From NCBI GenBank assembly GCA_034670305.1, contig JAXMNT010000004.1:81182-145181 (forward strand): a stretch of 64,000 bases of DNA. Reading direction: 5' to 3'. The DNA is from Deltaproteobacteria bacterium. GTDB taxonomy: Bacteria > Myxococcota_A > Polyangia > Polyangiales > Houyiibacteriaceae. Shown in pieces: positions 4,060 through 52,180 of the stretch. The notes below the pieces were generated by a model. The model ran no database searches. It had not been told where the DNA came from and saw only the letters and a program-made list of their open reading frames with translations. The position numbers were made by a program, and so were the translations under genes. Numbering within the stretch: position 1 is the stretch's first letter; the number at the start of each line of letters is the position of its first letter.

Positions 4060-4233
4060 TCGGCATCGGCATCGGCATCGGCATCGGCATCGGCATCGGC
4101 ATCGGCATCGGCATCGGCATCGGCATCGGCCTCGGCATCGGCCTCGGCATCGGCTTCGGCATCGGCGTCGGCGTCGGCGTCGGCGTCGGCATCGGCTTCC
4201 GGCTTCGGCGTCGCCTTCGGCATCGGCATCGGC
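4060..4233. repeat. Period-6 tandem array (TCGGCA/TCGGCG/TCGGCT/TCGGCC), intergenic between skp and tolC
   Basis: Directly visible tandem hexamers. Confidence 0.95.
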
Positions 4234-4314
4234 GGCCGCCGCATCGCACTCCAAAGAGAAAAGGACGGCCCACCTCGTGGTGCCGTCCTTGGTCTCGTCG
4301 AGAACCGCTCGGGT

Positions 4315-4881
4315 TCAGCGCATGCTGCTCATGCCCATCCCCATGCCCATCGAAGATGCGCCGGGCCGGGTATTGTATTGCTGGATCACCTGGTCCGTCA
4401 GATCCAGGTTGCCCGGCACCCACACCACGCCCCCTTCGTTGGCCTCGATGATCATCGTGTAGCCATCGGTCTGGCCGATGCGCCGCAGGATCTCCTGCAT
4501 GCGCTCGAGGATGACCTTGGTCAGCTGGGCTTCCTTCTGGGCGAGCTCGCGCTGGTATTCGACGTAGGTCGACTGCAGCTCGATGAACGCCTTCTGGTAC
4601 TCCTCGAGGCGCTTCTGAAGCGCTTCCTGGCTGAGCACGTTCTTCTGGCGCTCGATGTCTTCCTTCATCTTCTTCAGCTTCTCTTGCGCTGCATCGAGCG
4701 CCTTCTGTCGGCGTCGGAAGAGGCGCTTGAGCCGGTTCTTGGCGCTGCGGCCATCCTCGGTCTCATTGAGGGCGCGCTGAAGGTCGACGACCGCGATCTT
4801 CGTCTGGGCATACAGTTCGCCTGCGATCTGGCTGACGACGAGTGCGGCGACGAGAGTAACAACGTGACGACTGAAGCTCAT
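4315..4881 (-). CDS. skp: Periplasmic chaperone Skp/OmpH
   Basis: KIAVVDLQRALNETEDG, coiled coil, DLTDQVIQQYN; lies directly downstream of bamA. Confidence 0.9.
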   Translation of the reverse strand: MSFSRHVVTLVAALVVSQIAGELYAQTKIAVVDLQRALNETEDGRSAKNRLKRLFRRRQKALDAAQEKLKKMKEDIERQKNVLSQEALQKRLEEYQKAFIELQSTYVEYQRELAQKEAQLTKVILERMQEILRRIGQTDGYTMIIEANEGGVVWVPGNLDLTDQVIQQYNTRPGASSMGMGMGMSSMR

Positions 4882-4975
4882 GAAGAAGGGGTTCCTTTCG
4901 GCGACTCGTAAACTTGGTCGCCTGGAGGGTCAAGGCTCCGACGGTCCGGAGCGTTGGGCATTCAAAGAATGGGGG

Positions 4976-7681
4976 TCAGAAACTGTTGCCGATCGTGAAC
5001 TCGAACTTGATTTTCGGTTCGTAGGAGCGACGGCGGATGGGGATGCCCCATTCGAAACGCAGGGGTCCGAGCGGCGAGAACCAGCGGAAACCGAAGCCCC
5101 ACGAGGTCCGGATGGCCGCATGGACACCGCACGGGTTGGTGGACGGGTCGTTCGTCGGGGTGACGGGACCCTCGCACAGGCGGTTCTCGATGTTCCAGAC
5201 GTTGCCGCCGTCGGTGAAGAGCACACCGCGGATGCCGACCTCGGGCAAGATCGCGAACTCGAGTTCCGCCTGGTAGAAGAGCTGGAGGTTGCCGCCGATC
5301 GCGACGCCCTCCGAGACCCCGCCGCCCGCGATCGGAGGCGATGCGTTCGGATCGGTTCGGCGCGGGATCGAGACCCGCGGCCCGAGGCTCTGGAGCGGGT
5401 ACCCGCGCACATCGAAGATGCCGCCGAGTCGGAAGCGTTCGTAGATCGGGACGCCGTTGCGGCCGGTGATCAGACCGAACTGGGCGTTGGCCTTGAAGGT
5501 GACCGGGCGCCCTTCCCCGAGCGAGAAGACCTCGCGGTAGAACCGCACGAAGCCTGTGTGCCGCACGAAGATCTGGTCGGAGCCGAGGAACCGGTCCGCG
5601 ACCTCACCCGTGTAGTTCGCGTACCAACCCGCGGTGGGGAACAGCCGGTTGTTGCGGCCGTCCCACGTCAAACTCACCCGAACGGAACTGGTCAAACCGT
5701 CGCTGTAGAGGTTCGCGAGGGGCAGGCGCTGGAACTGGGTGAACCCCGCGCCGCCGCCGCTGGCCGACGAACCGAAGAAGCCGCTCGTGCGCGCGCTGAT
5801 CTTCACGTTCTCGAGCTGGTAGCCGACGGAGAAGCGCAACCGCCGGTCCACGATCGGGTGGCCAAGGGTGAGCCCGCCACCGGTGCTGTCTCGGTTGAAG
5901 TCCGCGAACTGACGGATGGTCTTGAACGCATCGACGCCGAGGCTCCACTGGGTGCCGAGGAACCACGGCTCCACGAAACGCAGCTGGACGAACTGGCGGA
6001 TGCCACTGAGCTGGAGCTGCAGCGAGAGCAGGTGGCCGTTGCCGAAGAGGTTCTGCTGCTGAACCTGAGCGGTCAGGATGAACTGCTCGATCGAGCTGAA
6101 GCCGGCGCCGACCTGGAAGGTGCCGGTGCTCTTCTCGCCGACCTGGATGTTGATGACGATGCGCTCGGGCGAGGAGCCGGTCTCTTCGCTCAGATCGACC
6201 CGTTCGAAGTACCCGAGCGCGTTGATGCGGCCTCGGCTGCGTTCGATGAGCGTCTGGTTGTAGAGGTCGCCTTCGTTGATCAACATCTCGCGGCGGATGA
6301 CGCGGTCGCGGGTCTTCGTGTTGCCGCGGATGTTGATCCGTTCGATGCGGACGGGCGGACCGCGCACGAGGTTGAGCTGCAGGTTCACGATGTTGCGATC
6401 CTGCTGCACGTCCATGTCGGGCGTGAGATCGACCCTCGCATAGCCTTCGTCCCGGTAGACGCGCGAGATCGCATCGATGCCGAGCCGGACCTTCGTCGAG
6501 CTGAACCAGTCGCCGGTGTCGAGTTCGATGTTCTCGCGCAGGTCGTCGCGGAGCGCTTCGATCTCGTTGCCTTCGGCGTCGACTTCGCGGACCGACATGC
6601 GGCCGATGCGGAAGCGCGGCCCCTCGGTGATCGGGATCGTGATGTCGATGTTCTGACGGTCGGATGTCAGCTCGATGCGCGGCGCGCCGACTCGGACCGT
6701 GAGGTAGCCCTTGTCGTAGTACCAAGCCTGCAGCCGGGTGTGATCCTCTTCGAACTTGTCGGCGTTGTAGTGGTCGTTGTCCGAGATGAACGAGAAGAAC
6801 CCATGCTCGCTCGTCTGCATGATGTCGTGGAGGTCTTCGGACGGGATCGAGCGGTTGCCGACGAAGCGGATGCGGCGGACCGTGACCTCCGGGCCCTCTT
6901 CGATCGTGAAGCGCACTTCGACTTCGTCGGTGCGGCTCTCGAGGCGCTTGATCTCGTAGTCGACGCGCGCGAGGAAGTACCCCTCCTCCGCGTAGAGGTC
7001 TCGGATCTTGGTGATCTGCTCGCGGACCGAAGGAATCGAGAGGATCGCGCCTTCGCGGAGGGTGACCTTCTCGTCGATGTCGTCGTCTTCGACCTCGTCG
7101 TTGCCCTCGAACACGATGCGGGCGATGGCCGGCCGCTCTTGGACGCGGATGCGCAGGTCGACTTCGTTCCCGTCGGCGTCGGCTTCGACGATGATGTCGT
7201 CGAAGAACCCCATGTCCCAGAGGGCACGGGCGTCGCGGGCGATCTCTTCGTCGGTGCACGGCAGACCGCGCCGAAGCCGCATGGTCGCGCGGACGTCGTC
7301 CGGATCGACCCGGCGGCCGCCTTCCACCTGGATCTGGCGAATGCGCCGCCCGTGGCAGAGGGTGCGCGGGGTGCTCGGAGGCTGGGTCTGCGGCTCGTAG
7401 GGCTCGCCCGTCGGCTCCACCGGCTCTTCCGGTTCGGCTTCGGCGTCCGGGTCTTCGCCTTCGGCGTCCGGGTCTTCGCCTTCGGCGTCCGGGTCTTCGC
7501 CTTCGGCGTCCGGGTCTTCGTCGCCCTCTTCGTCGTCGTCCTCTTCGTCGCCCCAATCGTCGCCGTCTTCGCCCTCTTCCTCGACGTCGGGATCGACCTC
7601 GGGTTGGGCCACGACATCACCCGGTCCGCAAAGCAGACCGAGCGCCAGTAGCGCGAGCAGGAGACGGGAAATACGAAGCAT
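4976..7681 (-). CDS. bamA: Outer membrane protein assembly factor BamA
   Basis: POTRA repeats (GNTKTRDRVIRREM), VRGY loop, C-terminal WFSPLGPLRFEWG...FEFTIGNSF. Confidence 0.97.
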   Translation of the reverse strand: MLRISRLLLALLALGLLCGPGDVVAQPEVDPDVEEEGEDGDDWGDEEDDDEEGDEDPDAEGEDPDAEGEDPDAEGEDPDAEAEPEEPVEPTGEPYEPQTQPPSTPRTLCHGRRIRQIQVEGGRRVDPDDVRATMRLRRGLPCTDEEIARDARALWDMGFFDDIIVEADADGNEVDLRIRVQERPAIARIVFEGNDEVEDDDIDEKVTLREGAILSIPSVREQITKIRDLYAEEGYFLARVDYEIKRLESRTDEVEVRFTIEEGPEVTVRRIRFVGNRSIPSEDLHDIMQTSEHGFFSFISDNDHYNADKFEEDHTRLQAWYYDKGYLTVRVGAPRIELTSDRQNIDITIPITEGPRFRIGRMSVREVDAEGNEIEALRDDLRENIELDTGDWFSSTKVRLGIDAISRVYRDEGYARVDLTPDMDVQQDRNIVNLQLNLVRGPPVRIERINIRGNTKTRDRVIRREMLINEGDLYNQTLIERSRGRINALGYFERVDLSEETGSSPERIVINIQVGEKSTGTFQVGAGFSSIEQFILTAQVQQQNLFGNGHLLSLQLQLSGIRQFVQLRFVEPWFLGTQWSLGVDAFKTIRQFADFNRDSTGGGLTLGHPIVDRRLRFSVGYQLENVKISARTSGFFGSSASGGGAGFTQFQRLPLANLYSDGLTSSVRVSLTWDGRNNRLFPTAGWYANYTGEVADRFLGSDQIFVRHTGFVRFYREVFSLGEGRPVTFKANAQFGLITGRNGVPIYERFRLGGIFDVRGYPLQSLGPRVSIPRRTDPNASPPIAGGGVSEGVAIGGNLQLFYQAELEFAILPEVGIRGVLFTDGGNVWNIENRLCEGPVTPTNDPSTNPCGVHAAIRTSWGFGFRWFSPLGPLRFEWGIPIRRRSYEPKIKFEFTIGNSF
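7438..7520. repeat. 21-bp tandem repeat x4 encoding EGEDPDA in the acidic N-terminal linker of BamA
   Basis: CTTCGGCGTCCGGGTCTTCGC at 7438, 7459, 7480 and 7501. Confidence 0.9.
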
Positions 7682-7698
7682 TTAGGAAAACGTGCGCG

Positions 7699-7727
7699 GC
7701 TATACGCTTGCCCCAGAGGGGGGTCAA
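7699..7727 (-). promoter_or_regulatory. Sigma70-like promoter for bamA-skp
   Basis: Minus strand TTGACC-N17-TATAGC just upstream of the bamA ATG. Confidence 0.5.
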
Positions 7728-7773
7728 CCGGCGCCCCGCGTCCGAACGCGCAGGATGCGGGGTTGATTCGCGC

Positions 7774-8574: not shown

Positions 8575-8581
8575 TGCGGCC

Positions 8582-11107
8582 TCATTGATGTCGAATCGCG
8601 TCTAGGGGTCGAAAACGGCCCGCCAGAATCGCGGGAAAAAGCGTCGCTAGGGCACACACGCCGAGCGCGATGAGACCGACGAGCGCGAACTCGGTGGCGT
8701 CCACGTTCACCGGCAGTCGGTCGATGTAATAGACCTCCGGGTTCACGCGGATCCCGAAGTGCTCGAAGACGAAGGTCACGAGGAACCCGAGTCCGAGTCC
8801 TATCGATGCACCGTAGACCCCGATGAGGATCCCTTCGATCAAGAAGATGACCACGACGCTGCTCTTCGAGGTGCCCATCGCGAACAGGATGCCGATCTCG
8901 CGGCCCTTCTCTTGGACCATCAAGGTCAGCGTGCCGAAGACACAGAAGCCCGCGATGAGGATGGCGATGCCGAGGGTGACGAACATCGCGAGCTTCTCGA
9001 GCGCGAGCGCACCGAAGAGCCCGCTGTTGAGCTCCTGCCAGTCGCGTACCCGGACGCCGTCGAGCAACATCGCGCCGCGGATTTCGTCGGCCACGGTGCG
9101 CGCGCGCTCCACGTCGTCGACCTTGATCTCGATCCCGGTGATCGCATCGCCCATGGAGAGGAAGCTCTGTCCGGCTTCCAAGAGCACGTACACGTTCTTC
9201 ATGTCGTACTCGTACATGCCGCTGTAGAAGATCCCGGCGACCCGGAAGCGGCGCGACTTCGGCATCGGTCCGGCCGGCCCCAGTTCTCCGAACGGAGAGA
9301 CGATGTCGATCTCGTCTCCAAGAAACACCCGCAGCGTACGCGCGAGCTCCTTGCCGATGACCACGCCCGGCAGCACATCGCGCCCCATCGGGTTCGCCGC
9401 CCGCGCCCGCTCATTCGCCGCCGCGTCCCGCAGGAACTCCGCCAAGTCCTCCCGAATCGGAGGCACCACACCCGCGCTGTCGGCATCGGCACCGGATTCG
9501 GCATCGGCATCGGCACCGGTTTCGGCATCGGCCTCGGCCTCGGCATCGGCATCGGCTTCGGCATCGGCATCGGCTTCGGCATCGGCATCGGCTTCGGCTT
9601 CGGCATCGGCTTCGGCTTCGGCATCAGAATCCGAATCGGCTTCAGAATCCCGGCCCTCCAGCACGTCGTCGATCTCCCGAATCAAGCTGCCGTCCTGATC
9701 GCGATCGCCCCCCGGTCGAATCTCGAGCGGAAGGATCGTGCGGCGCTCTTCGGGGGGAAGATCGAGCAGCCGCTCTGGATGAATGAGGTACTCGAGCCGG
9801 CCCCGGGTGAGGTTGGCCTCGAGGTCCATCACCGCGCCGACCGTCGCCGGATCGATGCCGCGCAACACCGCGCCGGCCCGGTTGGTCGCGGACGTCACCA
9901 TCACCTCGCCCTGCACCGACGGGGTCGCCGCCCCGACGCCCGGCGTGTCGCGCACGACATCGAGGATCGGAGACCAGCCCTCGAAGTGGCCACGTTCGGT
10001 GTCCACGACGATGTGGGCGTTGTTGCCGAGGATCTTGTCCTTCAGGTCGTTGCGGAAGCCGCCCATCACGCTCAACACCGCGCAGAGCATGCAGGTGGAA
10101 AACGCCACGGTCGCGATGCTCAGCCCACTGATGGTGGCGAGGAAGCCGCTCTTCTTCGCGCGCAGGTGGCGCGAAGCGACGAAGCTTCGAAACCCGAACG
10201 ACTCGATGGTCCGCATGATGACCGGCAGGAGCCGCACGAACACGCGGGTGGCGAAGATGGTCGTCACACCGAGGCGGATCATCGGGTGGATGAGCGACTC
10301 GATGTCGTCGTCGACCGGTTGCATCGGGAAGTTCGCCGAGATGAACGTGACGAAGACGACCGCTGCGACCGCCGCTAGGTCGAAGACGATCCAGAACCAG
10401 AACCGGAACCGCTGGGGGAGCAGGAACCAGAGCGTGATCCGCCCGACGCCCTCGAGCGCGCCGAAGACGAGCGCGACGATGGCGCTGATCTGCAGAAGCG
10501 ACTGCGCCCGGTCGCGGAGCGAGAGCTGCGCCTCGTCAAGCGCGTTGGTGAAACTGAAGCCGCTCTCGATCGAGACGGCGGCACCGAACGCCAAGAGCAA
10601 GAGCGGCACGACCACCACCACGACGAATCCAAGATGCAGAAACGCGGCCGCGTAGACCCGGCCCTTGCCGCGGTGGCCCGGCTGGAGCCGGCTCGCGAGC
10701 GAGAGCGTGAAGAGCGCCAGCCCCACATCGAGTGCGGTCCACAGCGCCAGAGGAAACGCGACCGTGGAAGCGCTCGTGCGGACGGCGATCCCGACCATCT
10801 GGGGCCAGAGTGCGACGACGGCACCGATGGAGCCGACCCACGCCAAGCTGAACAACGCGAATGCCGCAGGCAGCGGACCAAGTCCCGTCCGGGTCGGCAG
10901 CCGGTTCGCACGGGTCGAGATCCCGAACGCGGTGAGGCTCAGCCCGACCAACGCGACCAGCCAGACCACCAGCCCCATCGGCTCCTGGCGTTGGATGGCG
11001 ATCGCGCAGCCGATCCCGGCGAAGACGACGAGCGCCGCGCCGAGGCCCATCTGCACCCTCGCCTTGCTCGAACCAGGCGGATCGGAGCGGATGGTCGTGG
11101 CGCCCAC
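8582..11107 (-). CDS. LolC/E-family (FtsX-like) lipoprotein-releasing permease with N-terminal multi-TM extension and internal acidic repeat
   Basis: VLSVMGGFRNDLKDKILG, GIFYSGMYEYD, DWQELNSGLFGALALEK and EVYYIDRLP motifs. Confidence 0.88.
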   Translation of the reverse strand: MGATTIRSDPPGSSKARVQMGLGAALVVFAGIGCAIAIQRQEPMGLVVWLVALVGLSLTAFGISTRANRLPTRTGLGPLPAAFALFSLAWVGSIGAVVALWPQMVGIAVRTSASTVAFPLALWTALDVGLALFTLSLASRLQPGHRGKGRVYAAAFLHLGFVVVVVVPLLLLAFGAAVSIESGFSFTNALDEAQLSLRDRAQSLLQISAIVALVFGALEGVGRITLWFLLPQRFRFWFWIVFDLAAVAAVVFVTFISANFPMQPVDDDIESLIHPMIRLGVTTIFATRVFVRLLPVIMRTIESFGFRSFVASRHLRAKKSGFLATISGLSIATVAFSTCMLCAVLSVMGGFRNDLKDKILGNNAHIVVDTERGHFEGWSPILDVVRDTPGVGAATPSVQGEVMVTSATNRAGAVLRGIDPATVGAVMDLEANLTRGRLEYLIHPERLLDLPPEERRTILPLEIRPGGDRDQDGSLIREIDDVLEGRDSEADSDSDAEAEADAEAEADADAEADADAEADADAEAEADAETGADADAESGADADSAGVVPPIREDLAEFLRDAAANERARAANPMGRDVLPGVVIGKELARTLRVFLGDEIDIVSPFGELGPAGPMPKSRRFRVAGIFYSGMYEYDMKNVYVLLEAGQSFLSMGDAITGIEIKVDDVERARTVADEIRGAMLLDGVRVRDWQELNSGLFGALALEKLAMFVTLGIAILIAGFCVFGTLTLMVQEKGREIGILFAMGTSKSSVVVIFLIEGILIGVYGASIGLGLGFLVTFVFEHFGIRVNPEVYYIDRLPVNVDATEFALVGLIALGVCALATLFPAILAGRFRPLDAIRHQ
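9480..9650. repeat. Period-6 TCGGCN array in frame inside lolC/E (encodes EADA/DAEA)
   Basis: Tandem hexamers; reading frame maintained. Confidence 0.93.
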
Positions 11108-30080: not shown

Positions 30081-30144
30081 CCTCAGACGAGTAACACGAC
30101 CCAGCCCCCGAGGGTCGTGAGCAGCGCCACACATGGCGCTGCTC

Positions 30145-30335
30145 CCCTTGCCCTTGCCCTTGCCTTTGCCCTTGCCCGTGCCGAAGCCGAAGCCGAATCC
30201 GAAGCCGAATCCGAATCCGAAGCCGAATCCGAAGCCGACCCCGACCCCGATCCCGACCCCGACCCCCGACCCGACCCCGACCTCGCTACCACGAAGGCCG
30301 ATCCCGTGGCCCGTGCCCGGAATCAGAATCCGATT
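30145..30335. repeat. Drifting period-6 array (CCCTTG, then CCGAAG/CCGAAT, then CCGACC)
   Basis: Directly visible; intergenic, upstream of yicC. Confidence 0.9.
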
Positions 30336-30346: not shown

Positions 30347-32364
<2,018 letters not shown>

Positions 32365-32368
<4 letters not shown>

Positions 32369-32970: not shown

Positions 32971-33067
32971 GGTGCAACCGGTCTACCACGCGGCGCCGCT
33001 GGGGGCATCGGCATTCCGGAGGGAGGCGGACTGGGCGCAGGTCGTACCAAGCCGTGTGCACAGCCAA

Positions 33068-33604
33068 GTGATTCTGCTTCTCCTCGCGTCCGCGTTCCTC
33101 TCGGTGCCGGCCCTCGCCCTCGCCCAAACCGGCGAAGTGCCCGAGCCTCCCCAGCAGCGGTCCGCACTCGACCAAGAACTGTCCGAAGTCGAACGCGCGC
33201 TGGCGCACGACGGCGTCACCCGATCTCCGATGGGCGAAGAGGTCCCGTGCTGTGCGCTGGCCCAGCCCGAGCTCGATCTGGAGACCCAGCGCGAACTGCA
33301 GCTCGAGCAGGAGTGGCTGGAGGAGTACGTCGGGCTTCGCCCGGGCGCGCGCATCGTCGGCGGCTTTGCACTCGGCGCGATTGGCCTGCTCAGCATCGTC
33401 GGCTCGACGATCTTGCTGCGCGACGACTACGTGGGGACGGAGCCCTACGCCGCGCTCGCGATCGTCAGCGGGGTCATCGCACTCGCCGGACTGCGGCTGG
33501 TGATCTCCGGTCGCAAACAAGCGGAGCGACGCCGCGAGTTGCGCGGGCTGCTGCGGCCGCGCGGCTGGTTGGCGTACGCGCCGGGGCGCGGCCTGGTGTT
33601 CTAG
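33068..33604 (+). CDS. Hypothetical membrane protein
   Basis: Signal peptide VILLLLASAFLSVPALALAQ and two C-terminal TM helices. Confidence 0.6.
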   Translation: MILLLLASAFLSVPALALAQTGEVPEPPQQRSALDQELSEVERALAHDGVTRSPMGEEVPCCALAQPELDLETQRELQLEQEWLEEYVGLRPGARIVGGFALGAIGLLSIVGSTILLRDDYVGTEPYAALAIVSGVIALAGLRLVISGRKQAERRRELRGLLRPRGWLAYAPGRGLVF

Positions 33605-33617: not shown

Positions 33618-33798
33618 GCCGAATCCGAAGCCCGAAGCCGATGCCGATGCCGATGCCGATGCCGACGCCGAAGCCGAAGCCGATGCCGATGCCGATGCCG
33701 ATGCCGATGCCGATGCCGATGCCGATGCCGATGCCGACGCCGAAGCCGACGCCCGCCGATGCCGACGCCGACGCAGGAACCGACGCCGGAACCGACCC
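33618..33798. repeat. Period-6 array (GCCGAT/GCCGAA/GCCGAC) between convergent genes
   Basis: Directly visible. Confidence 0.95.
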
Positions 33799-35996: not shown

Positions 35997-36062
35997 ACAA
36001 GAGCGAGGGTCCCGGCCGACCGAGAGTCCGATCCCGATCGCGAAGCCGTCGGATTTCGGCTC

Positions 36063-36327
36063 CCCTGCGGTTCTGCGACGGAACTTCCCCACAACTCCCC
36101 CGAACTCTCCCCAAAAGGAGGGGCGCCTACAAGTGACGCAGCGCCCACAGGCATGATCACGCAGACGCTGGTCGGGTCACCCGCGGTCGCTCGGAGGACC
36201 CAGAACCGCTGTTCTGTTTCTTGAGGCGGCGCACTCCTGCTTGGTGGTCGGTTCTCGCCGGCTTCTTGGTTTGGTTTCGGGAGAGTTTGGGGGAGTTGTG
36301 GGGGAGTGTGGGGGAGGAACCGCAGGG
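36063..36327. other. Long imperfect inverted-repeat element (candidate MITE or structured nucleic acid)
   Basis: 11-bp outer arms (36063-36073/36317-36327) and 25-bp inner arms (36087-36111/36279-36303, one G.T pair). Confidence 0.7.
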
Positions 36328-36361
36328 ACGCAGCACAGCACCGGCTGGGCATGCGCCCAGC

Positions 36362-36786
36362 CAGCATCAGAATCAGCGGCAGCATCAGCATCAGCGGCAG
36401 CATCAGCGGCAGCATCAGCGGCAGCATCAGCCGCAGCATCAGCCGCAGCATCAGCGCCAGCATCAGCCGCAGCATCAGCCGCAGCATCAGCCGCAGCATC
36501 AGCCGCAGCATCAGCCGCAGCATCAGCCGCAGCATCAGCGGCAGAATCAGCCGCAGCATCAGCCGCAGCATCAGCGGCAGCATCAGCCGCAGCATCAGCG
36601 GCAGCATCGGCTCGGCATGTCGGCTTCGGCATCGGCTTCGGCTTCGGCTTCGGCTTCGGCATCGGCATCGGCGTCGGCATCGGCTTCGGTTTCGGCTTCG
36701 GCTTCGGCTTCGGCATCGGCATCGGCGTCGGCATCGGCTTCGGCTTCGGCATCGGCATCGGCTTCGGCTTCGGCTTCGGTTCGGAT
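36362..36786. repeat. Composite array: (AGCATCAGCCGC)n 12-mers switching to TCGGCN hexamers
   Basis: Directly visible, upstream of radA. Confidence 0.95.
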
Positions 36787-36833: not shown

Positions 36834-38234
36834 GTGGCCGCCGCAAAGAAGAAGAAGTCGAAGAAGGGGAACTACGAGTGCACCGCCTGCGGGGCGCGGC
36901 ACGCCCGCTGGATGGGCAAGTGCACCACCTGCGACGAGTGGAACACCCTCGAAGAAGCCAAGGCCGAGGTCAGTGTCGCGTCGAAGGAGCGGACCGGTGG
37001 GAGCGCGCGTCCGGTGAAGATCAAGAACGTCAGCGCGGAGGATGCCAACCGGCTGCCCACCGGCATCGGCGAGCTCGATCGAGCGCTCGGCGGCGGCCCG
37101 GTCCGCGGCTCCGTGATCCTGCTCGGCGGCGATCCGGGCATCGGCAAGTCGACCCTCATGATGCAGGCGCTCGCCGCGCTGGCGGGGTCTGCCGCGAACG
37201 GAGGCGCGGGCCGAAGCGCGCTCTACGTCACCGGGGAAGAGTCCGCCGCGCAGGTCGCGCTGCGGGCGCGCCGCGTGGGCGGCAAGGGCATGGACGAAGT
37301 GCACCTGCTCGCCACGACCGACCTCGAAGACGCGGAGTCCGCGCTCGCGTCGATGAAACCCGAAGTCGCGGTCATCGACTCCATCCAGACCCTGCGCTCG
37401 AGCGAACTGGGCTCCTCGGCCGGCAGCGTCACCCAGCTGCGCGAAGTCTCCGGCCGCCTCATCGATCTCGCCAAGCGCCACGGCACCGCGATGTTCCTCA
37501 TCGGCCACGTGACCAAAGAAGGCACCCTCGCCGGCCCGAAGATGCTCGAGCACCTCGTCGACACGGTGCTCGCCTTCGAAGGGGACCGCAGCCACGCGTT
37601 CCGCGTCGTGCGCGCCACCAAGAACCGGTTCGGCCCCGCGCACGAGCTCGGGGTGTTCGAGATGGTCCGGGAAGGCCTGCGCGAAGTCCCCGATCCAAGC
37701 GCGCTGTTTCTCGCCGAACGCCCGAAGGACGCGGCCGGCTCGGTGGTCGTACCCACCGCCGAAGGATCCCGCCCGCTCCTCATCGAACTGCAAGCCCTCG
37801 TCGCCCCGCCCCAGTACGGCGCCCCGCGGCGCGTGGTCTCGGGGCTCGACGGCAACCGCCTCGCCATCCTGCTCGCGGTGCTCGACCGAAAGGCCGACGT
37901 CGGCGTGCTCGACCGCGACGTCTTCGCTTCGGTCGCCGGCGGCGCCCGCGTCGACGAACGCGCGCTCGACCTCGCCCTCGTGCTCGCCGTCGTCAGCAGC
38001 TACCGCAACAAGCCGGTGCCCGTCGACGTCGCGGCGTTCGGCGAAGTCGGCCTCGCCGGCGAAGTCCGCGCTGTGCCGCGCCCCGGGCCACGGGTACAGG
38101 AAGCGGCGAAGCTGGGTTTCTCGCGAGTGATTCTGCCAGCCGCCAACGCCGACCGCCTCACGAAGTCCGAACGCAAAGGGGTGCGGCTGATCGCGGTCAA
38201 CACGGTCGAAGAAGCGCTGGCGGTGCTGAGCTGA
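36834..38234 (+). CDS. radA: DNA repair protein RadA/Sms
   Basis: C4 zinc finger CTACG...[30 protein letters not shown]. Confidence 0.97.
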
Positions 38235-38259
38235 GGCCGTCGGCCGCAATCGCTACAAG

Positions 38260-38508
38260 CGACAGAGCCAGCAACAGCGTCAGCGTCAGCGGCAGCGACA
38301 GCGGCAGCAACAGCGGCAGCGGCAGCGGCAGCGGCAGCGGCAGCGTCAGCGGCAGGAACAGCGTCAGCGTGTCAGCGACAGCGTCAGCGTCAGCGACAGC
38401 GTCAGCAACATCAACAACAGCGTCCGCAACAGCGTCGGCAGCAACCGCGTTCAGCAGCAGCAACAGCGTCAGCGGCAGCAGCAGCCTCAGAGACAGCAAC
38501 AGCGTCAA
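38260..38508. repeat. Period-6 CAGCNN array downstream of radA
   Basis: CAGCGT/CAGCGG/CAGCAA/CAGCGA units. Confidence 0.88.
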
Positions 38509-40824: not shown

Positions 40825-42471
40825 ATGTCGAGTGAAACGTTGACCTTGGTCCCCTACGGCGGCCTCGGCGAAGTCGGTATGAATGCGATGACCCTTGAAA
40901 TATCGGGGGTTCGGGTGATGCTCGACTGCGGGGTGACGTTCCCCGGGGGCGTTCTCGGCGTGGACATCGACCATCCGCGGTTCGACCACGTGTTGGCGGC
41001 GCCGAACGCGCTCCACGCGATCCTCATCACCCACGGCCACGAAGATCACATCGGCGCCCTGCCCTTCCTGCTTCGGGCGATCCGCCCCAAGCGCGACCAG
41101 CCCCTCCCGGTCTACGGCCCGCCCTACGCGCTCAAGCTCATCGAGCGCCGCCTCGAAGAACACCGGATGGCGCTGCCGCCGATGATCGCCACCGAGGTGG
41201 GCAAGAAGTTCGAGGTCGGCCCCTTCGAGGTCGAACCCTTCCAGGTGAACCACTCGATCCCGGACTCCACCGGCCTCATCCTGCGCACCCCGGCCGGCAC
41301 GATCGTGCACAGCGGCGACTTCAAGATCGAGAAGCGCCCGGTCGACGATCGCCCCTTCGGCCACGACGCGCTCCGCAAGGCGGCCGACGAAGGCATCGAT
41401 CTCCTGATGAGCGACTCGACCAACATCGACGTCGAAGGCCACACCGGTGAAGAAGCCGACGTGAGCCCCGTGATCCAGCAGATCATGGCCGACGCCCAGC
41501 ACCGGGTGATCGTCGCGCAGTTCGCGTCGAACGTGTACCGCATGCGCGCGGTCTTCGACGCCGCCCGCGCCCATGGCCGCAAGGTCTGTCTGCTCGGTCG
41601 CAGCGTGCGCAACCACGCGGAGATCGCCCGCAGCCTCGGCTTCCTCGATGGGGTGGACGATCTGCTGGTCGAACCCGACGACGCGATGAAGATGGCCCGC
41701 CACAAGGTGTGCGCGATCGCGACCGGCACCCAAGGCGAAGGTGCCGCGGCGCTCTCCCGACTCACCCGCGACGACCACCCGTACTTCCAGATCGAAGAAG
41801 GCGACACGGTCGTGTTCTCCTCGCGGGTCATTCCCGGCATGGAGAAGAAGGTCTTCGGCCTCCAGAACGACCTCGAGCGCAAAGGCATCCGCGTCATCCA
41901 CCGCCGCACCAACGAAGGCGTGCACGTGAGCGGCCACGCGGCGCGCGGCGAGCAGCGCGATCTCATCGAGCTGTGCAAACCCCGGGCGTTCCTCCCCGTG
42001 CACGGCACCTACCACCACCTCAAGCGCCACGCCGACCTCGGCGAGTCCTGCGGCGTGCCGAGCCTCGCGGTCGAGAACGGCAGCGTGCTCGAGCTGACCG
42101 ACGGCGTCTTGAAGAAGACCGGCGAAGTGCTCTCCGGCCGCGTGCACATCCAGCGTGGTGAAGAGGTCGACGAGAGCCAGCTCAAAGACCGCGCGCTCCT
42201 GAGCGAGCTCGGCCACGCCATCGTCGCGTTCGTCCGCGTCGGTCGCCGCTTCGAAGTCGACGTCGCCACCCGCGGCGCCCTTCGCCCGGACATCGAAGAA
42301 GACGTCCTCGACCAACTCGCCGACTGGGTCCGCCAAGACCTCGGCCGCGCCGACAGCCAAGACCTCGACGTCCTCGAAGACGCCGCCCGCCGAAGCGTCC
42401 GCCGCTTCTTCGGCAAAAAGTTCCGCCGCAAGCCCCTCGTCACCGTGCTCGGCCTAGACCAAAGCCGCTAA
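40825..42471 (+). CDS. rnj: Ribonuclease J
   Basis: [35 protein letters not shown] and PVHG motifs. Confidence 0.95.
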
Positions 42472-42472
42472 G

Positions 42473-42730
42473 CGGCTTCGGTTTCGGGATCGGCGTCGGA
42501 TTTCGGCGTCGGATTTCGGCGTCGGATTTCGGCGTCGGGTTCGGCATCGGCATCGGCTTCGGCTTCGGCTTCGGCTTCGGCTTCGGGATCGGCTTCGGGA
42601 TCGGCATCGGCATCGGCATCGGCATCGGCGTCGGCTTCGGCTTCGGCTTCGGCTTCGGCATCGGCATCGGCTTCGGCTTCGGCTTCGGCGTCGGCTTCGG
42701 CTTCGGATTCGGCTTCGGCTTCGGGGGTCG
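42473..42730. repeat. TCGGCN array (includes CGGCGTCGGATTT 13-mers) between convergent genes
   Basis: Directly visible. Confidence 0.95.
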
Positions 42731-42740
42731 GCTCGAATCC

Positions 42741-44135
42741 TCACCGCGCCCGAACCGTCACCTCGTTCCCATCCCGCACCGCACGAAGCCCGCGCGCCCG
42801 CCCCACCGCCTGCGCCAACGTCCCAGCGTGTTCCTCGCTTTCGACGGTCAGCGTCCACGAGAACCCCTGCCCGTCCTCCGCCGGAACGAACACATCCCCC
42901 CGCCAATACGAAGCAAGCACGCGCGGCGCGTCTTCCCCGTGCTCGAGCAGGAAGGACCAAACCGCCAGCTCCCCCAGCGAATCGGGAGCGACGGCGGAGG
43001 CCGCCGCTGCTGAAGCTCTTGCTGCGGTTCCTGTCTCTGTTGCTGCCGCTGTCTCTGTTGCTGCCGCTGTCTCTGTTGCTGCCGCTGTCTCTGTTGCTGC
43101 CGCTGTCTCTGTTGCTGCCGCTGTCTCTGTTGCTGCCGCTGTCTCTGCCGCTGTCTCTGTTGCTGCCGCTGTCTCTGCCGCTGTCTCTGTTGCTGCCGCT
43201 GTCTCTGTTGCTGCGTCTGCTTCTGTCTCTGACTCTGAGTCTGTCTCCGCCTCTGTCTCCGCCGCAGCCGCTCTCTCCGCCGCCACCGCCGCGGCCGCGT
43301 CCACCGCCGCGTCCGTCGGCCCGTGCAGAATCTCGGACATCGTCCCCGGCGGCCGCCCATACGCCTGGTTCACCGCGACCCACCCGCCCCGTTCCCGCAG
43401 ACGCCGCACGTAGGGCGCGCCATACGCGTACGGCGCGACCAAGCCGAGCCGGACGATGTGGGGCGCGGAGTGCAACGGGTGGTCGTCGCCGAGCTCGAAC
43501 GCACCGGCCCGCGCATCGACGAGCACGCTCGCTTCGCCTTCGATCAAACAGCGGAGCGCGAGTTTGGCGTCGCTGGTCGTGGCGGCGTCGTCGAGCGCGC
43601 TGAGATCGAAGTGCTGGTCGACGAGCGCGTGGGTGAGTTCGTGCATGAGCACGCTCTCCGGATGGTCGCGCCCTGCGGCGTCGCCAATCCGCCCGAACAC
43701 GTCCGACCGCACGACGAGCTCCTCCGCCCGCGGGTCGTAGTACCCGAGCACCGCGTCCGAGAGATCCCCGAAGTCGACCTCGTAGTCCTCCGGAAGCAGG
43801 CCGAGCGCCTGGTACGTCCGGACCCGGCGGGCCTGCGCGACCGGATCTTGCGCCGCGCCAAGCCGCTCCCCCATCTCGCGCCGGGTCACGGTGACGGCGC
43901 GGACGGGTCGCAGGAAGCGGAGTTCGCGCCGGCGCTCGACCTCGCGGGCGAGGCGATCGATGCGGCCGGCATGGATCGCAGCCAGCCCAACACCGTGCCG
44001 CATCGCGGGCGAGGGGGTGTCCGAGGTGACTTCGCGGCGAACGAACTGGGCGGGGTCGGTGGGTTGCGGCGGGGTGGCGGCCGGGGGGCACCCCAGCAGC
44101 AAACAGATCCCCAGCCACCCGTATCGTGTTGCCAC
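42741..44135 (-). CDS. Lipoprotein, putative gluzincin metallopeptidase
   Basis: LLLGC lipobox; [19 protein letters not shown] and LIEGEA motifs; internal ETAAAT repeats. Confidence 0.72.
43022..43270. repeat. 18-bp (3x6) tandem repeat CTGTCTCTGTTGCTGCCG, in frame (TETAAA)n
   Basis: Directly visible. Confidence 0.93.
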
Positions 44136-44179
44136 CCCAAAGAGATACGACGAACCGGATCAGATGGCAGCATTTCGGG

Positions 44180-44495
44180 CCCGACGCCGAAGCCGAAGCC
44201 GAAGCCGAAGCCGAAGCCGAAGCCGAAGCCGAAGCCGACCCCGAAGCCGAAGCCGACGCCGAAGCCGAAGCCGACTCCGAAGCCGACGCCGAAGCCGAAG
44301 CCGACTCCGAGGCCGAAGCCGACTCCGAAGCCGAAGCCGACTCCGAAGCCGACCCCGAACCCGAAGCCGAACCCGAAGCCGAACCCGAAGCCGAAGCCGA
44401 AGCCGAAGCCGACTCCGAAGCCGAACCCCGACCCCGACACCGAAGCCGAAGCCGAAGGCCGAGGCCTAGGACGCCGAGGCCTGGGACGCCGAGGC
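44180..44495. repeat. GCCGAA/GCCGAC/TCCGAA array followed by GCCGAGGCCT[A/G]GGAC 15-mers, upstream of tig
   Basis: Directly visible. Confidence 0.95.
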
Positions 44496-44665
44496 CGCCC
44501 ATCCGGCCCGAAAGCCGCGCGGCCCCTGCCGTTGCGCTGGCGCTCATCCCATCAATGCGGTTGCGCGGACGGGGGGAGAGAAGTACGACCGGCGCCCGTT
44601 CCGGACGCTCGCCACACCCTTTTGTGCTGGCAACTGGCATTGCCGGACGTAGGAGAGTGGTACCC

Positions 44666-46186
44666 GTGCAGTCCGAGGTCAGCGAGATCAGCCCCATCCA
44701 GGTCGAGATCAAAGTTCAGGTCCCCTGGGATCGAGTGAAGAAATCCCTCGACCAGAACTTCGCGCGTCTCGCCAAGACGGCGAAGGTGCGCGGGTTCCGG
44801 CCCGGCAAGGTGCCCCGCCACGTCATCAAGAAGCTGTACGGCCAGGCCGTCAAAGCCGAGGTGACCGGGACCATCATTCAAGAAGGTCTGCTGGACGCGT
44901 TCAACAAACACGAGCTGCCGGTCGTGGCCCAGCCCGAGGTCACCCCGCCCCCGATCCTGGACGGGGAGGACTACCACTTCACCGCCAAGGTCGAAGTCCG
45001 CCCGACCATCGACTCCGTCAACCTGGACGGCCTCAAGATCGTGCGCCCGAACGCCGAGGTCGAGGACGCTGCCGTCGACGCCGAGCTCGCCCGGATGCAG
45101 AAGCAGCAGGCCGAAGTACAAGAGCCGGAGCCGATGCGCCCCGCCATCAAGGGCGACCGGGTCACCATCGACTACCAGGTCTCGGTCGACGGCAAGGTGA
45201 ACCCCTCGATGGGCGCCGAAGGCCGCGACGTGGACCTCGGCGACGAAGGGCTCAACCCCGAGTTCGACGCGGGCCTGCTCGGAGTGGTGCCCGGCGACGT
45301 GAAGTCGATCGACGTCTCGTTCCCCGAAGACCACCACCACGAGGATCTCCGCGGCAAAACCGCGACGTTCGAGATCACCGTGCACTCGCTCCGCGAGGTG
45401 GTGCTGCCCGAGATCGACGACGAGTTCGCGAAAGACGCGGGTGAGTTCGAGACCCTGCTCGAGCTGCGGCTCGACGTGCGCAAGCACCTGCAAGACCTCG
45501 CCGACCGCCGCTCCGCCAGCGAGCTGCGCGATGGGCTGGTCGAGGCCGTCGTCGCCCTGAACGACATCCCTGTCCCGCCGACCATGGTCAAAGAGCAGAA
45601 GCAGCAGATGCTGATGCAGATGGTGCAGTTCGCGCAGATGACGGGTCAGCAGCTCGGCGACTTCTCCGAGCTCGACGGCCGCGCCGAGAAGCGTGTCCGC
45701 GCCGGCCTCGTCCTGAGCGCGCTCGCGCGCCAAGAGAAGATCGAAGTCAGCGAAGAAGACGTCGCCGCGAAGTTCGCCGAGATCGCAGAGTCGACCGGCA
45801 AACACATCGCCAAGGTGAAGGTCGAGTATGCGGGCGAGAAGCGCGATCGGCTCGAGCAGACGATCATGGAAGACCGCATCTTCGCGTTCCTCAAGGAGAA
45901 GGCGGAGTTCGTGGACGCGCTGCCGGAGGGCGACGCGGCCGAGGCGAAGTCCGAGGACAAGCCGAAGAAGGCTGCGAGCAAGAAGCCGAAGGCCGCCAAG
46001 GCGAAAGCCGACGACGCCGAACCGGCGGAAGCCGCGCCCAAGAAGAAGGCCGCCGCCAAGAAAGCCGCGCCCAAGAAGGCCGCGCCCAAGAAGGCCGCGC
46101 CCAAGAAGGCCGCGCCCAAGAAGGCCGCCAAGAAAGCCGCCCCGAAGAAGGCCACGAAGAAGGCCGCCAAGAAGAAGTCCGACTGA
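44666..46186 (+). CDS. tig: Trigger factor with KKAAP-repeat tail
   Basis: GFRPGKVP signature, FKBP domain, [10 protein letters not shown]; GTG start with AGGAG upstream; lies upstream of clpP. Confidence 0.95.
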
Positions 46187-46904: not shown

Positions 46905-47205
46905 CTACCCGCGACTGAGCTTGAACAACATCGCGCAGACGTGGTCCGCGAGGTCGTAGACGTCCTCCCCCACGTCCACGTACCCCATCACCCCCGCGAC
47001 TTGAAGAGCCGCCTTCACCTCGCGCGCTTCGCCAAGCGCGCGGGAGAACCCGTCGGGGTTCCGTCCGCCCCTCGCACTCCGAGACTCCGCTATCAAAAGC
47101 GGCACCGCCTGTGCCGCCCGCCGCAGCGACTTCAGCGAAGCCTCGCGAATGCGAGGCAGAACCTCGCGTACGAGCACGAAGGAGCGACTTGTCGAATACC
47201 AGCAT
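46905..47205 (-). pseudogene. Frameshifted four-helix-bundle protein (23S rRNA-IVS/TIGR02436-like; Avd structural family)
   Basis: GGGAGG-N5-ATG at 47205 gives MLVFDKSL, then a one-base frame change to [13 protein letters not shown]...[14 protein letters not shown]...[18 protein letters not shown]...[11 protein letters not shown]; span is 301 nt. Confidence 0.72.
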
Positions 47206-47246
47206 GTTGACCTCCCGGTCGTTGCGCCGAGCGTGAACTCGCCCGA

Positions 47247-47375
47247 GGGCGCGAAGCGCCCCCAGCTGTCGGCGGGGTGGCGGGTCAAGGACGAGCAAGC
47301 GCGAAGCGCGCCAGCGAAGCGGCGGGCATCCCGCCGGGCCGAAGGCCTCCTTGAGGCGCCGCCTCGCCGACAGCT
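47247..47375. other. Multi-branched palindromic element with GAA-triloop mini-hairpins
   Basis: 28-nt arms 47264-47291/47348-47375 enclose GCGCGAAGCGC, GCGAAGC, GGCGGG-CAT-CCCGCC and GGCCGAAGGCC; GGGCGCGAAGCGCCC lies just outside. Confidence 0.85.
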
Positions 47376-47463
47376 ACGCTGGACCATCCATCGGGCCACC
47401 CACCTCCACGAGGAGGGGCGCAGACTGGAGGCTGAGGTTCTGCGTCGGCTTCGGCGGGCTTGC

Positions 47464-47815
47464 GTCGGCATCGGCGTCGGCGTCGGTTTCGGTTTCGGTT
47501 TCGGTTTCGGTTTCGGTTTCGGTTTCGGCGTCGGGCATCGGCATCGGCTTCGGCATCGGCTTCGGCTTCGGCATCGGCTTCGGCTTCGGCATCGGCTTCG
47601 GCATCGGCGTCGGCTTCGGCTCGGCGTGGGCTTCGGCTTCGGCGTCGGCTTCGGCGTGGGCTTCGGCTTCGGCATCGGCTTCGGCTTCGGCTTCGGCTTC
47701 GGCGTCGGCTTCGGCGTCGGCTTCGGCGTCGGCTTCGGCGTCGACTGCTTTGGGATCGGCGTCGACTTTCGAGGGCACCAGCACCAGCACCAGCACCAGC
47801 ACCAGCACCAGCACC
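47464..47815. repeat. TCGGNN array (47464-47745) plus (GCACCA)n (47775-47815) between clpP and clpX
   Basis: Directly visible. Confidence 0.95.
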
Positions 47816-48044
47816 CACGGCCCGCCCTGTCCCGTCTGAGCAGCCCGTGCGTTTTCGCGTCCAGCCCCGCCTGGCGCCCCGCCCCGGAAAGATCGTCCAG
47901 GGACTGGCGCGGCCCCGAACCCCTTGGCTATTCTCCCGCTCCGGGGGCTGCTGGGCGTGAGCAGTCTCCCACTCCAAACCGGTCGGGGGGCCTCGGTGGT
48001 TCTCCCGGCTCGACGCAACCCCCCAGAAGCACTAGGTAGATCCG

Positions 48045-49295
<1,251 letters not shown>

Positions 49296-49417
49296 GCGCC
49301 CGCCGACGGCCCTCCCCCACCGACCCAGTTCGGTGAATGGGCACCTCTTGTCGGCGTCCTGCTTGCGACCCACTTCATCTGTTCAACACACACGTGGCCA
49401 CGGGGCCGGGAGCTTGG

Positions 49418-51907: not shown

Positions 51908-51911
51908 CACT

Positions 51912-51941
51912 CGACACGGGCACGGACTTCGGCCCGTGTCG
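51912..51941 (+). terminator. Hairpin after lon
   Basis: CGACACGGGC/GCCCGTGTCG 10-bp stem; weak U-tract. Confidence 0.45.
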
Positions 51942-52039
51942 GCTTCCGTCGTGTCGGCGACATTCTTGGGGCACAGCCCCCAAACCCCGTCCCGGTGACA
52001 CGGCTTGCTCGCTTCGCTCGGCTTCGCCGCGTCGAGTAT

Positions 52040-52180
52040 CAGCTTCGGCTTCGGCGTCGGCTTCGGCTCCGGCATCGGCTTCGGCATCGGCATCGGCTTC
52101 GGCTTCGGCTTCGGCTTCGGCTTCGGCTTCGGCTTCGGCTTCGGCTTCGGCGAATCGGCATCGGCTTCGGCCTCGGCTTC
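52040..52180. repeat. TCGGCT/TCGGCA array upstream of tRNA-Val
   Basis: Directly visible. Confidence 0.95.

Follow-up and report, generated by a model that had tools for sequence, protein, structure and literature searches.

Hexanucleotide tandem arrays dispersed through a genome of the Houyiibacteriaceae (Myxococcota): placement, companion modules and possible origin

Hexamer arrays and genes of the window

The stretch of DNA analysed here, hereafter the window, comprises 64,000 nucleotides (G000:C4:81182-145181) of a deltaproteobacterium of the family Houyiibacteriaceae, whose genome, denoted G000, spans 7.93 Mb in 105 contigs with 68.1% GC. The elements in question are arrays of six-base units repeated head to tail and dispersed among its genes; almost 2% of G000 consists of such arrays, which makes it unusually repeat-rich for a bacterium. 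Arrays of period 6 were detected with Tandem Repeats Finder (TRF), run on the window and on the whole genome, overlapping TRF rows being merged into clusters and neighbouring rows into composite arrays; arrays of at least 100 bp are called long. Genes were called with a crude codon-bias caller of my own (5,917 calls, 88% coverage), on which all context counts are based. Pfam recognised among its calls in the window a TolC-like OEP, OmpH, BamA, an ABC ATPase, a LolE/MacB-type permease, a class II aminoacyl-tRNA synthetase, a release factor, YicC, guanylate kinase, RadA/Sms, RNase J, trigger factor, ClpP, ClpX and Lon.

The initial annotation of this DNA had listed 13 arrays in both orientations, and TRF recovers all of them within a few bases of the starts given there, with sizes of 138-399 bp plus one of 41 bp. 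All have period 6 and 82-100% matches and, with a unit of at most 6 nt repeated head to tail, have the unit structure of microsatellites. The variation of the units in blocks is visible once the arrays are printed in hexamer register, and the two stretches described as array-free (9644-30144 and past 52181) hold period-6 rows of 15-21 nt only. The siting at gene junctions, likewise proposed, holds for all but three of the 13, those at 9480, 31090 and 43031, which lie in frame within genes. The genome average predicts 4.9 long arrays per 64 kb, and with about 12 the window is an array-rich stretch of G000, not a special one.

Three arrays occupy spacers between convergent genes. The (GCCGAT)n array at 33625..33796 begins 21 nt past the stop of a plus-strand gene (33056-33604) and ends 14 nt short of the 3' end of a minus-strand gene (33810-36092); the (CAGCGN/CAGCAA)n array at 38258..38507 starts 24 nt past the stop of the RadA/Sms-like gene (36834-38234, plus strand), and the (CGGCTT/CGGCAT)42 array at 42473..42724 starts only 2 nt past the RNase J stop codon. 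In the divergent spacer that precedes the RadA/Sms-like gene lies a composite array (36386..36784) made of (CAGCATCAGCSG)18 followed by (TCGGCN)30, which TRF reports as a block of the 12-mer CAGCATCAGCCG and then TCGGCT. It adjoins an inverted repeat (36044..36346), rich in GGGGAGTTGTGGGGGAG, with 72-nt arms (36044-36115 and 36275-36346) that are 74% complementary and are separated by 159 nt; because the flank carrying it has 24 similar partners among other array flanks, this inverted repeat is probably a miniature inverted-repeat transposable element.

In a tandem spacer, the (TCGGCN)29 array at 4060..4233 follows the stop of the OmpH-like gene (4315-4881, minus strand) at a distance of 82 nt and precedes the TolC-like OEP gene; a called N-terminal extension across it reads (AD/AE)n, before a signal-peptide-like start. 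Another spacer, between a YicC-like gene (29193-30080) and a hypothetical gene (30347-32368), both on the minus strand, holds at 30119..30182, on the plus strand, a hairpin, GAGCAGCGCC-ACACAT-GGCGCTGCTC, followed by (CCCTTG)6 (fold z -3.2), the sole window copy of a genome-wide module that combines a hairpin with a G-quadruplex-type hexamer block. A (CCGAAK)9(CCGACC)8 array directly adjoins it (30180..30282), the TRF range 30145-30282 thus comprising three blocks, CCCTTG, GCCGAA and CCGACC. Further on, the (CCGAAG/CCGACN)47 array at 44181..44496 ends about 170 nt before trigger factor begins (44666), and the open frame that runs through it lies outside that protein, Trigger_N beginning at residue 182 of the long open reading frame (ORF). 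The spacer between clpP and clpX carries (TCGGNT)46 and (GCACCA)7 at 47465..47815 (47465-47743 and 47775-47815 by TRF), and a (GCTTCG)23 array at 52042..52181 lies 135 nt past the Lon stop and 53 nt before tRNA-Val(TAC) (52234-52307).

As to the three arrays within genes, all read in frame on the minus strand, the (TCGGCN)27 array at 9480..9643 fills a hypervariable acidic periplasmic linker in the LolE/MacB-type permease gene (8582-11056), a place that is short and non-repetitive in an alignment with orthologues from 7 relatives. The array at 31090..31330, (CGGCWT)n and then (CGGGCA)n, translates first as (RA)n in the hypothetical 673-aa gene already mentioned, whose product matches no Pfam family. 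The array at 43031..43315 is an 18-mer, (CTGTCTCTGTTGCTGCCG)n, made of three CTGNNN units and read as (ATETAA)n between two non-repetitive protein parts; its host, a conserved gene with a HELTH motif (42741-44102), is kept at the same place in the relatives G012, G004 and G017 (E 1e-22 to 1e-28).

The expanded clpP-clpX spacer also holds, on the minus strand, a degenerate gene (46905..47210) of the four-helix-bundle family 23S_rRNA_IVP (PF05635 / TIGR02436), which scores 28.7 bits with the Pfam model, below its cut-off of 33.8, and 28.6 bits with TIGR02436, above its cut-off of 24. Among eight ORFs in or beside the array spacers, Pfam found only this remnant and one weak, sub-threshold holin-like match.

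Load, placement and companions in the genome and the family

TRF reports 1,375 period-6 rows in G000 (150,815 bp, 68 canonical units), which merge into 1,091 composite arrays of 33 to 596 bp (146,594 bp in all, or 18.5 bp per kb), 605 of them long; by comparison, a simulated genome of equal size, generated by a fifth-order Markov model that keeps hexamer frequencies, yields 0 such rows. The excess is huge, and neither of the two refuting conditions named in the initial annotation is borne out: the repeat spectrum has the excess, and the closed genome of a relative, described below, has arrays of the same kind. Clusters of period 6 number 1,257, as against 22 of period 3, 7 of period 7, 47 of period 9, 320 of period 12, 342 of period 15, 245 of period 18 and 250 of period 21; super-periods of 12, 18 and 24 nt are present. 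Given this strongly preferred period and unit, and the pattern counts in relatives described below, the arrays represent one genome- and family-wide phenomenon; the initial annotation's inference against independent slippage events is supported to that extent.

The leading canonical unit is AAGCCG (CGGCTT / GCCGAA), with 430 rows and 74.6 kb, followed by ATCGGC, AAGCGG and ACGCCG with some 10-12 kb each, and by CAG-type units with a few kb each; a separate AAGGGC class (GGGCAA / CCCTTG) comprises 406 rows, each only about 33 bp long. The common C[A/G]G core that had been claimed is found in 12 of the 13 window arrays and fails for the (CCCTTG)6 block at 30145; as evidence it is weak, for about half of random GC-rich hexamers, by my own estimate from base composition, carry CGG or CAG in some rotation on one strand. 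The dominant family, CGG-C-N-T, or (GCCGAN)n on the other strand, offers a stronger fact in its position profile, which over 13,211 CGG-type units reads C 94%, G 90%, G 94%, C 72%, then a free position (T 50%, G 23%, A 21%, C 7%) and T 86%.

Arrays occupy 9.5% of non-genic and 0.38% of genic DNA, a 25-fold difference in density, and 120,944 of their 146,594 bp (82%) fall outside robust gene calls. The 605 long arrays are for the most part intergenic (426); 60 lie within 'genes' that are mostly array, 68 are internal to a gene, 32 lie at a called 5' end and 19 at a gene 3' end. A long array is held by 20.9% of convergent spacers, 8.5% of tandem and 5.8% of divergent ones. The distance to a neighbouring gene 3' end has a median of 34 nt (293 of 604 within 30 nt), that to a neighbouring 5' end a median of 120 nt (18 of 366 within 30 nt).

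As to read support, four sequencing runs of one study hold 94-95% of the words sampled from window positions 41500-45000, and the Logan contigs of these runs cover unique parts and array edges at about 10-30x; in all four, they break at each of the three arrays of this region, entering the first (42473) by about 47 nt. The Logan contigs therefore back array edges only, and the interior lengths and unit orders given for G000 are those of the assembly. Arrays and their companion modules are a main cause of assembly breaks in G000, as 176 of the 1,091 arrays lie within 300 bp of one of its 210 contig ends.

In the family, the phenomenon is real and widespread, with G000 as the extreme case among the genomes examined. 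The pattern (GCCGAN)x6, counted in 41 relatives, has 4,024 matches in G000, 286 in G012 and 0-14 elsewhere; the looser (CGGNNN)x8, counted in 81 family genomes, has 10,316 in G000, 2,796 in G017, 1,234 in G015, 1,227 in G005 and 1,052 in G012, and the load is very uneven, the 48 small genomes of genus g3 having 0-13 matches per strand. This pattern sees CGG units only, so that the apparent universality of CGG across genera is partly circular. Indeed, unbiased TRF runs on samples of 47-140 kb found period-6 arrays of other units, CAGTGY and GTCTCG among them, in G017, G004, G005, G015 and G002. The closed, single-contig genome G012 (9.07 Mb) has (GCCGAW)n, (TCGGCW)n and (TCAGTY)n arrays in the tails of genes and past stop codons, adjoining (CCCGTG)n blocks and hairpins. 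In G002, a relative with a small genome, (CAGTGY)n directly follows a terminator-like hairpin; two such arrays on one contig (L131, G002:C6, 85-215 and 6019-6208) come after an identical hairpin, AAAAAGGGGACAGTCCCCTTTTT, and share about 60 nt of left flank, that is, a repeated element of hairpin plus array in another genus.

The gene order rnj-x-tig-clpP-clpX-lon of the window is kept in G012, G004 and G017 (ClpX 91.5-93.8% identical), with a clpP-clpX spacer of 94-214 bp there versus 1,197 bp in G000, and a rnj-tig interval of 1.4-1.8 kb versus 2.2 kb. Two further relatives, L047 and L026, have no hexamer array within 3 kb of clpX.

Several modules accompany the arrays. Short (GGGCAA)n blocks, 641 by a loose pattern, have exactly five units in 438 cases, and 216 of the 605 long arrays have a block of this GGGCAA/CCCTTG type within 60 nt; the related (GGGCAN)x4 is also abundant in relatives (458 matches in G004, 326 in G017). 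A perfect hairpin of at least 6 bp follows 262 of the 641 blocks, mostly in the form AGCAGG...CCTGCT and then AG, which leaves CTAG at its foot, and the module folds well (z -3.2 and -2.4). In 194 of 260 hairpin modules, the hairpin points to the 3' end of a gene, with the stop codon at a median of -1.5 nt from the hairpin end and at most 5 nt away in 144 of the 194; in the example that was read, the TAG of the hairpin foot is the stop codon itself, and a copy elsewhere in the genome lies, for instance, at G000:C1:174446-174533. Insertion sequences (IS) of the IS630 type target CTAG, and the hairpin plus (CCCTTG)5 looks like a mobile, terminator-like or CTAG-targeting element. A hairpin beside the long arrays as a general rule was rejected: a perfect 8-bp hairpin occurs in 63 of 1,203 array flanks and after 148 of 3,636 ordinary stops.

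A junction motif, CCGAAGGAGAG(GATG), has 83 copies in G000 (on contigs C5 and C34, for example), and in most of those printed it joins (CCGAAT)n to (CCCGTG)n or (CCCTTG)5, sometimes within a higher-order repeat of about 72 nt. By itself, it resembles a ribosome-binding site followed by ATG.

The third companion is the four-helix-bundle family met in the clpP-clpX spacer. Out of its 47 matches in G000, 36 lie within 500 bp of an array, as compared with 20.6% of 2,000 random genes, and in one subfamily the genes share a conserved leader, about 250 nt long, with many CCTTCGG motifs and a (CTGNNN)n array at its end. The family includes the Avd accessory proteins of diversity-generating retroelements (DGR); no reverse transcriptase was seen beside the 47 genes, as far as their neighbourhoods were examined. 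In the whole of G000, the RVT_1 profile has three matches (C23:86418-87011, C10:168437-169069 and C67:18832-19467), and the two that were typed are both best matched by retron families (the St85 and Ec67 models, below their cut-offs); with two of the three typed, no DGR-type or telomerase-like enzyme was seen among them.

Transposases of the Y1_Tnp family were considered as a further partner of the hairpin module. G000 has 11 matches, resembling IS200 and the transposases associated with repetitive extragenic palindromes (RAYT), of about 235-250 aa and with an HUH-type motif, SNHVHLIV (C20:45721-46002, for example). For a gene of the RAYT-like kind, so many copies are unusual. None of the 11 adjoins a GGGCAA/CCCTTG block, and 10 of the 11 printed loci are flanked instead by a different, long inverted repeat containing GAACTGCCGTGTTCG, which leaves the RAYT link to the hairpin module unsupported.

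Explanations of the arrays

On balance, the arrays are somewhat more probably than not a hexanucleotide satellite of the whole family, which grows in steps of six nucleotides by slippage or unequal exchange, is kept where it is tolerated and is partly spread by modules. No function is required to explain them. This reading draws on what the data show directly: the excess of period 6, the siting outside genes and near their 3' ends, the filtering of frames within genes, spacers longer than in kin, the super-periods, and period-6 arrays of other units in related genera. Arrays would arise from short seeds, and replication slippage together with unequal exchange would lengthen or shorten them by 6, 12, 18 or 24 nt at a time. 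Period 6 would be favoured as frame-neutral and as producing loops larger than those that MutS repairs, namely loops of 1-4 nt; being the smallest frame-neutral unit whose slipped loops lie beyond MutS repair, it can be explained without a special generator. Selection would then prune the arrays, which would persist after stop codons and between convergent genes, be rare near gene starts and, within genes, survive almost only as acidic (Ala/Ser/Thr-Asp/Glu)n linkers in loops that were already variable. Their spread may have been helped by the modules described above, that is, by the hairpin with (CCCTTG)5 that sits on stops, by four-helix-bundle cassettes with their (CTGNNN)n leader and by the CCGAAGGAGAG junction motif, and exchange between arrays would keep a few old unit variants circulating. 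The super-periods of 12, 18 and 24 nt and the pure runs at contig ends lend indirect support to slippage. Growth in multiples of six also agrees with unit identity, which in the assembled arrays peaks at lag 2. Loss of mismatch repair was tried as a cause and rejected, for MutS and MutL are found in all five genomes searched, array-rich and array-poor alike.

A number of points weigh against this reading. Slippage itself is inferred, not observed, and every count of gene context depends on the crude codon-bias caller. In the assembled arrays, adjacent units are identical at a rate of 0.34, versus 0.29 after shuffling within arrays, a mosaic unlike recent slippage of single units. The mosaic order is at least partly an ascertainment effect, since short-read assembly crosses only arrays that have enough variant units: arrays that touch contig ends are pure (adjacent-unit identity 0.835, n=6), and the value for a sample of 14 arrays from the closed G012 is 0.62, so that the true genome probably holds more, longer and purer arrays. 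The unequal conservation of positions, with CGG and T kept and the fifth position free, is more than neutral decay alone would produce; it needs either a few old unit variants circulated by exchange between arrays, or selection. Between tandem genes, the sense strand carries CGG in 147 cases and CCG in 91, a bias that pure neutrality leaves unexplained. Likewise, small arrays recur at equivalent spacers in other genera: in G004, a 68-bp (TCGGGC)n upstream of tig, at a place equivalent to that of the 44181 array; in G017, a 12-mer array 28 nt after lon; and in G012, a 128-bp (CGGCGT)n about 650 nt after lon. Such recurrence could reflect retention rather than tolerance. As for the part assigned to modules, only 233 of the 1,202 flanks compared (400 nt each, with arrays masked) are similar to the flank of another array; most arrays therefore lie in unique DNA, and hitch-hiking explains a minority of them at best. 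Moreover, joined 120-nt flanks compared with G000 revealed no empty-site paralogue, almost all matches being self-matches that arise from imprecise array edges. Position-specific conservation, strand bias and recurrence at equivalent spacers are not well explained by a satellite, and they keep alive a selected function at gene 3' ends and a dedicated generator.

According to the former, the arrays and the hairpin with (CCCTTG)5 are selected 3'-end elements, acting as transcription terminators or insulators where genes converge, as protectors of mRNA 3' ends, or as a lattice that offers a DNA- or RNA-binding protein one CGG every six nucleotides. I regard this as unlikely, though it deserves to be kept in mind. 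The arrays hug stop codons and are 2.5- to 3.6-fold enriched in convergent spacers; the sense-strand bias, the position profile and the small arrays at equivalent spacers in G004, G017 and G012 point the same way, as does the orientation of the hairpin modules towards gene 3' ends. With z-scores of +5.4 and +5.6, the (GCCGAA)n strand has unusually little structure, as an open binding platform would. Yet both orientations are common (316 versus 289 long arrays), lengths vary from 33 to 596 bp, and units differ among genera and among arrays; 80% of spacers, convergent ones included, do without a long array, arrays also lie within genes, and many family genomes, notably those of genus g3 as judged by CGG units, are nearly array-free. 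Besides, any inert insert would acquire a 3'-end bias through selection against promoter disruption, and perfect hairpins are no commoner beside arrays than after ordinary stops. A role of RNA structure in the arrays themselves, which the initial annotation had also entertained, is rejected on the folding scores, for the (GCCGAA)n strand folds worse than its shuffles and the (CUUCGG)n strand folds in an ordinary way.

A bolder version, to which I attach a slightly lower and in any case small probability, would be a family-wide 3'-end system made up of the hexamer arrays and the hairpin with (CCCUUG)5, in which a protein of its own would recognise, or an enzyme of its own would synthesise, a lattice with one CGG or G-run every six nucleotides. 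Such a system would serve termination or insulation between converging genes, or mRNA 3'-end stability, with units specific to each genus.

A dedicated generator, by which hexamers would be synthesised on a template by a reverse transcriptase or another, telomerase-like polymerase at breaks or at the ends of mobile modules, is improbable. In its favour speak the common period and conserved CGG core over hundreds of unique loci in several genera, the mosaic order of units in assembled arrays, the association with four-helix-bundle genes, whose family includes Avd, and the hexamer blocks that adjoin the hairpin modules. Against these stand the bias of assembly in the mosaic order, the partial circularity of CGG across genera, where unbiased samples show CAGTGY, GTCTCG and other units, the set of only three RVT_1 matches, and the different inverted repeat flanking the RAYT-like transposases in 10 of the 11 printed loci. 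The templated addition suggested in the initial annotation is thus not borne out: the reverse transcriptases that were typed are of the retron type, and CGG-type arrays have no polarity from end to end, their purity being flat over deciles (0.28-0.36).

That the arrays are mainly protein-coding sequence of low complexity, the 'intergenic' ones being unannotated or decayed genes, is very improbable. The arrays have no stop codon in any of six frames, so that ORFs run through them and 60 called 'genes' are mostly array; those within genes have a clear preferred frame, and myxobacteria rank at the top of bacteria for low-complexity regions (LCR) of proteins in the part available of the proteome survey by Ntountoumi et al. 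2019 (PMC6821194). In 50 of the 87 arrays within genes or at gene 3' ends, the reading is Ala-Glu or Ala-Asp, the remainder being mostly Ser-Ala, Gly-Phe, Gly-Ser or Thr-Glu. However, the bulk of the array DNA lies outside robust gene calls, and downstream of stops the array frame spreads over all three frames of both strands (457 cases). In the Ala-Asp/Glu frame, the second codon is GAA in 50%, GAC in 23%, GAT in 21% and GAG in 7% of units, contrary to the usage of G000, in which GAG stands at 39.7 and GAA at 27.1, GAC at 55.9 and GAT at 13.8 per 1,000; at the same time, the silent third base of the Ala codon GCC is 90% fixed. Because the frame is unconstrained after stops, codon choice runs contrary to genome usage and the Ala third base is fixed, the arrays are a phenomenon of the DNA level, with selection filtering which of them persist in genes.

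The weakest alternative, that the arrays are artefacts of short-read assembly, as the breaks in the Logan contigs and the many arrays near contig ends might suggest, can practically be set aside, because arrays occur in many genomes assembled independently of one another, the closed G012 among the relatives has similar arrays in similar positions, array edges in G000 are covered by contigs of four runs, and arrays within genes keep long frames open between conserved domains.

Known repeat systems and implications

The satellite favoured here belongs to a known kind, the dispersed short tandem repeats of bacteria, and G000 is remarkable within it for load, placement and companion modules. Cyanobacterial short tandemly repeated repetitive (STRR) sequences are dispersed, lineage-specific heptamer arrays, with several unit families per genome, mostly intergenic and with no agreed function. 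The analogy with them drawn in the initial annotation is apt: in both cases, very short tandem units, of several families and restricted to a lineage, are dispersed over mostly intergenic DNA. The period here is 6, not 7 (1,257 versus 7 clusters), the host belongs to the Myxococcota and the units are GC-rich; in addition, the arrays of G000 also lie in frame within genes, amount to some 18.5 bp per kb and have hairpin and four-helix-bundle modules as companions.

Repetitive extragenic palindromes (REP) and the bacterial interspersed mosaic elements (BIME) built from them, known from enterobacteria and pseudomonads, are extragenic hairpin mosaics at gene 3' ends or between convergent genes, with a conserved foot tetranucleotide and a cognate RAYT. 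G000 resembles them in its hundreds of small extragenic 3'-end elements that combine hairpins with short motifs, CTAG being the tetranucleotide at the foot; this likeness concerns the hairpin with (CCCTTG)5 only and not the long arrays. The bulk of its repeat DNA consists of tandem hexamers and not of palindromes, and its RAYT-like genes go, in 10 of the 11 printed loci, with another inverted repeat. By their period, the arrays thus lack a defining feature of STRR sequences and, by the missing palindrome and RAYT link, those of REP and BIME.

With bacterial microsatellites and variable number tandem repeats, such as contingency loci and repeats of the mycobacterial interspersed repetitive unit type, the arrays share short tandem units, an expected change of length by slippage, and multiples of three when coding. 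They differ in number and place, with about 600 long arrays per genome, mostly after stops and not in promoters or 5' coding ends of phase-variable genes.

A G-quadruplex is expected where a sequence follows the rule G3N1-7 x4, and the G strand of (GGGCAA)5 fits it, as far as sequence alone can tell. On the same ground, the blocks might be likened to telomeric repeats, (GGGCAA)5 being a G-run hexamer like TTAGGG that mostly comes in about five units; they are internal, however, lying at stop codons beside a hairpin and not at chromosome ends, and no telomerase-like enzyme was found. The dominant long arrays, for their part, have GG runs only. As to diversity-generating retroelements, neither of the two RVT_1 matches that were typed, out of three, belongs to their class, and no reverse transcriptase was seen in the neighbourhoods examined of the four-helix-bundle genes.

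In the literature on hexanucleotide and simple repeats in myxobacteria, Myxococcota and prokaryotic intergenic DNA, subscription journals and supplements excepted, no description of these arrays was found. Bacteria are usually deemed poor in simple repeats, which gives weight to the load of G000. A survey of 117,861 genomes reports, in the part of it that was available, that bacteria are on average depleted in short tandem repeats (STR), that hexanucleotide STRs are enriched in coding sequences, where the arrays of G000 are 25-fold less dense than elsewhere, and that protists average about 20 bp of STR per kb, compared with 18.5 bp of hexamer array in G000; that part makes no mention of Myxococc- (PMC12699852). 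The proteome survey already cited (PMC6821194) concerns the same phylum, and the (AE/AD)n, (SA)n and (GF)n stretches in called proteins of G000 are countable as LCRs; it works, as far as the available part goes, at the protein level, whereas most of the array DNA here lies outside robust genes. Some of the LCRs it reports may be ORFs that run through arrays.

The arrays have practical consequences, too. Most contig ends of G000 lie at or near an array or a module with a hexamer block, that is, arrays break short-read assemblies and affect binning; in annotation, they lengthen ORFs, create false 'genes' and inflate the counts of low-complexity regions in myxobacterial proteins. They also bear on protein evolution, since real proteins have visibly gained acidic linkers from them. 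The family includes both array-rich and array-poor genera and so offers a contrast for asking what controls satellite DNA in bacteria, and the hairpin with (CCCTTG)5 on stop codons is a separate, sharply defined element worth a study of its own. Were the family-wide 3'-end system to prove true, it would amount to a new class of punctuation in bacterial genomes.

The window contains other tandem repeats as well. At the 3' end of the trigger factor gene, a 15-nt repeat, AAGAAGGCCGCGCCC, in about nine copies (46029-46177) encodes a tail rich in Lys, Ala and Pro beyond the Trigger_C domain. Two in-gene tandem repeats that do not belong to the hexamer family lie at 7433-7571, in the 5' end of the BamA-like gene (minus strand), and at 23988-24284, inside a gene at 23529-25625, with periods of 21/42 and 15/30/72, respectively.

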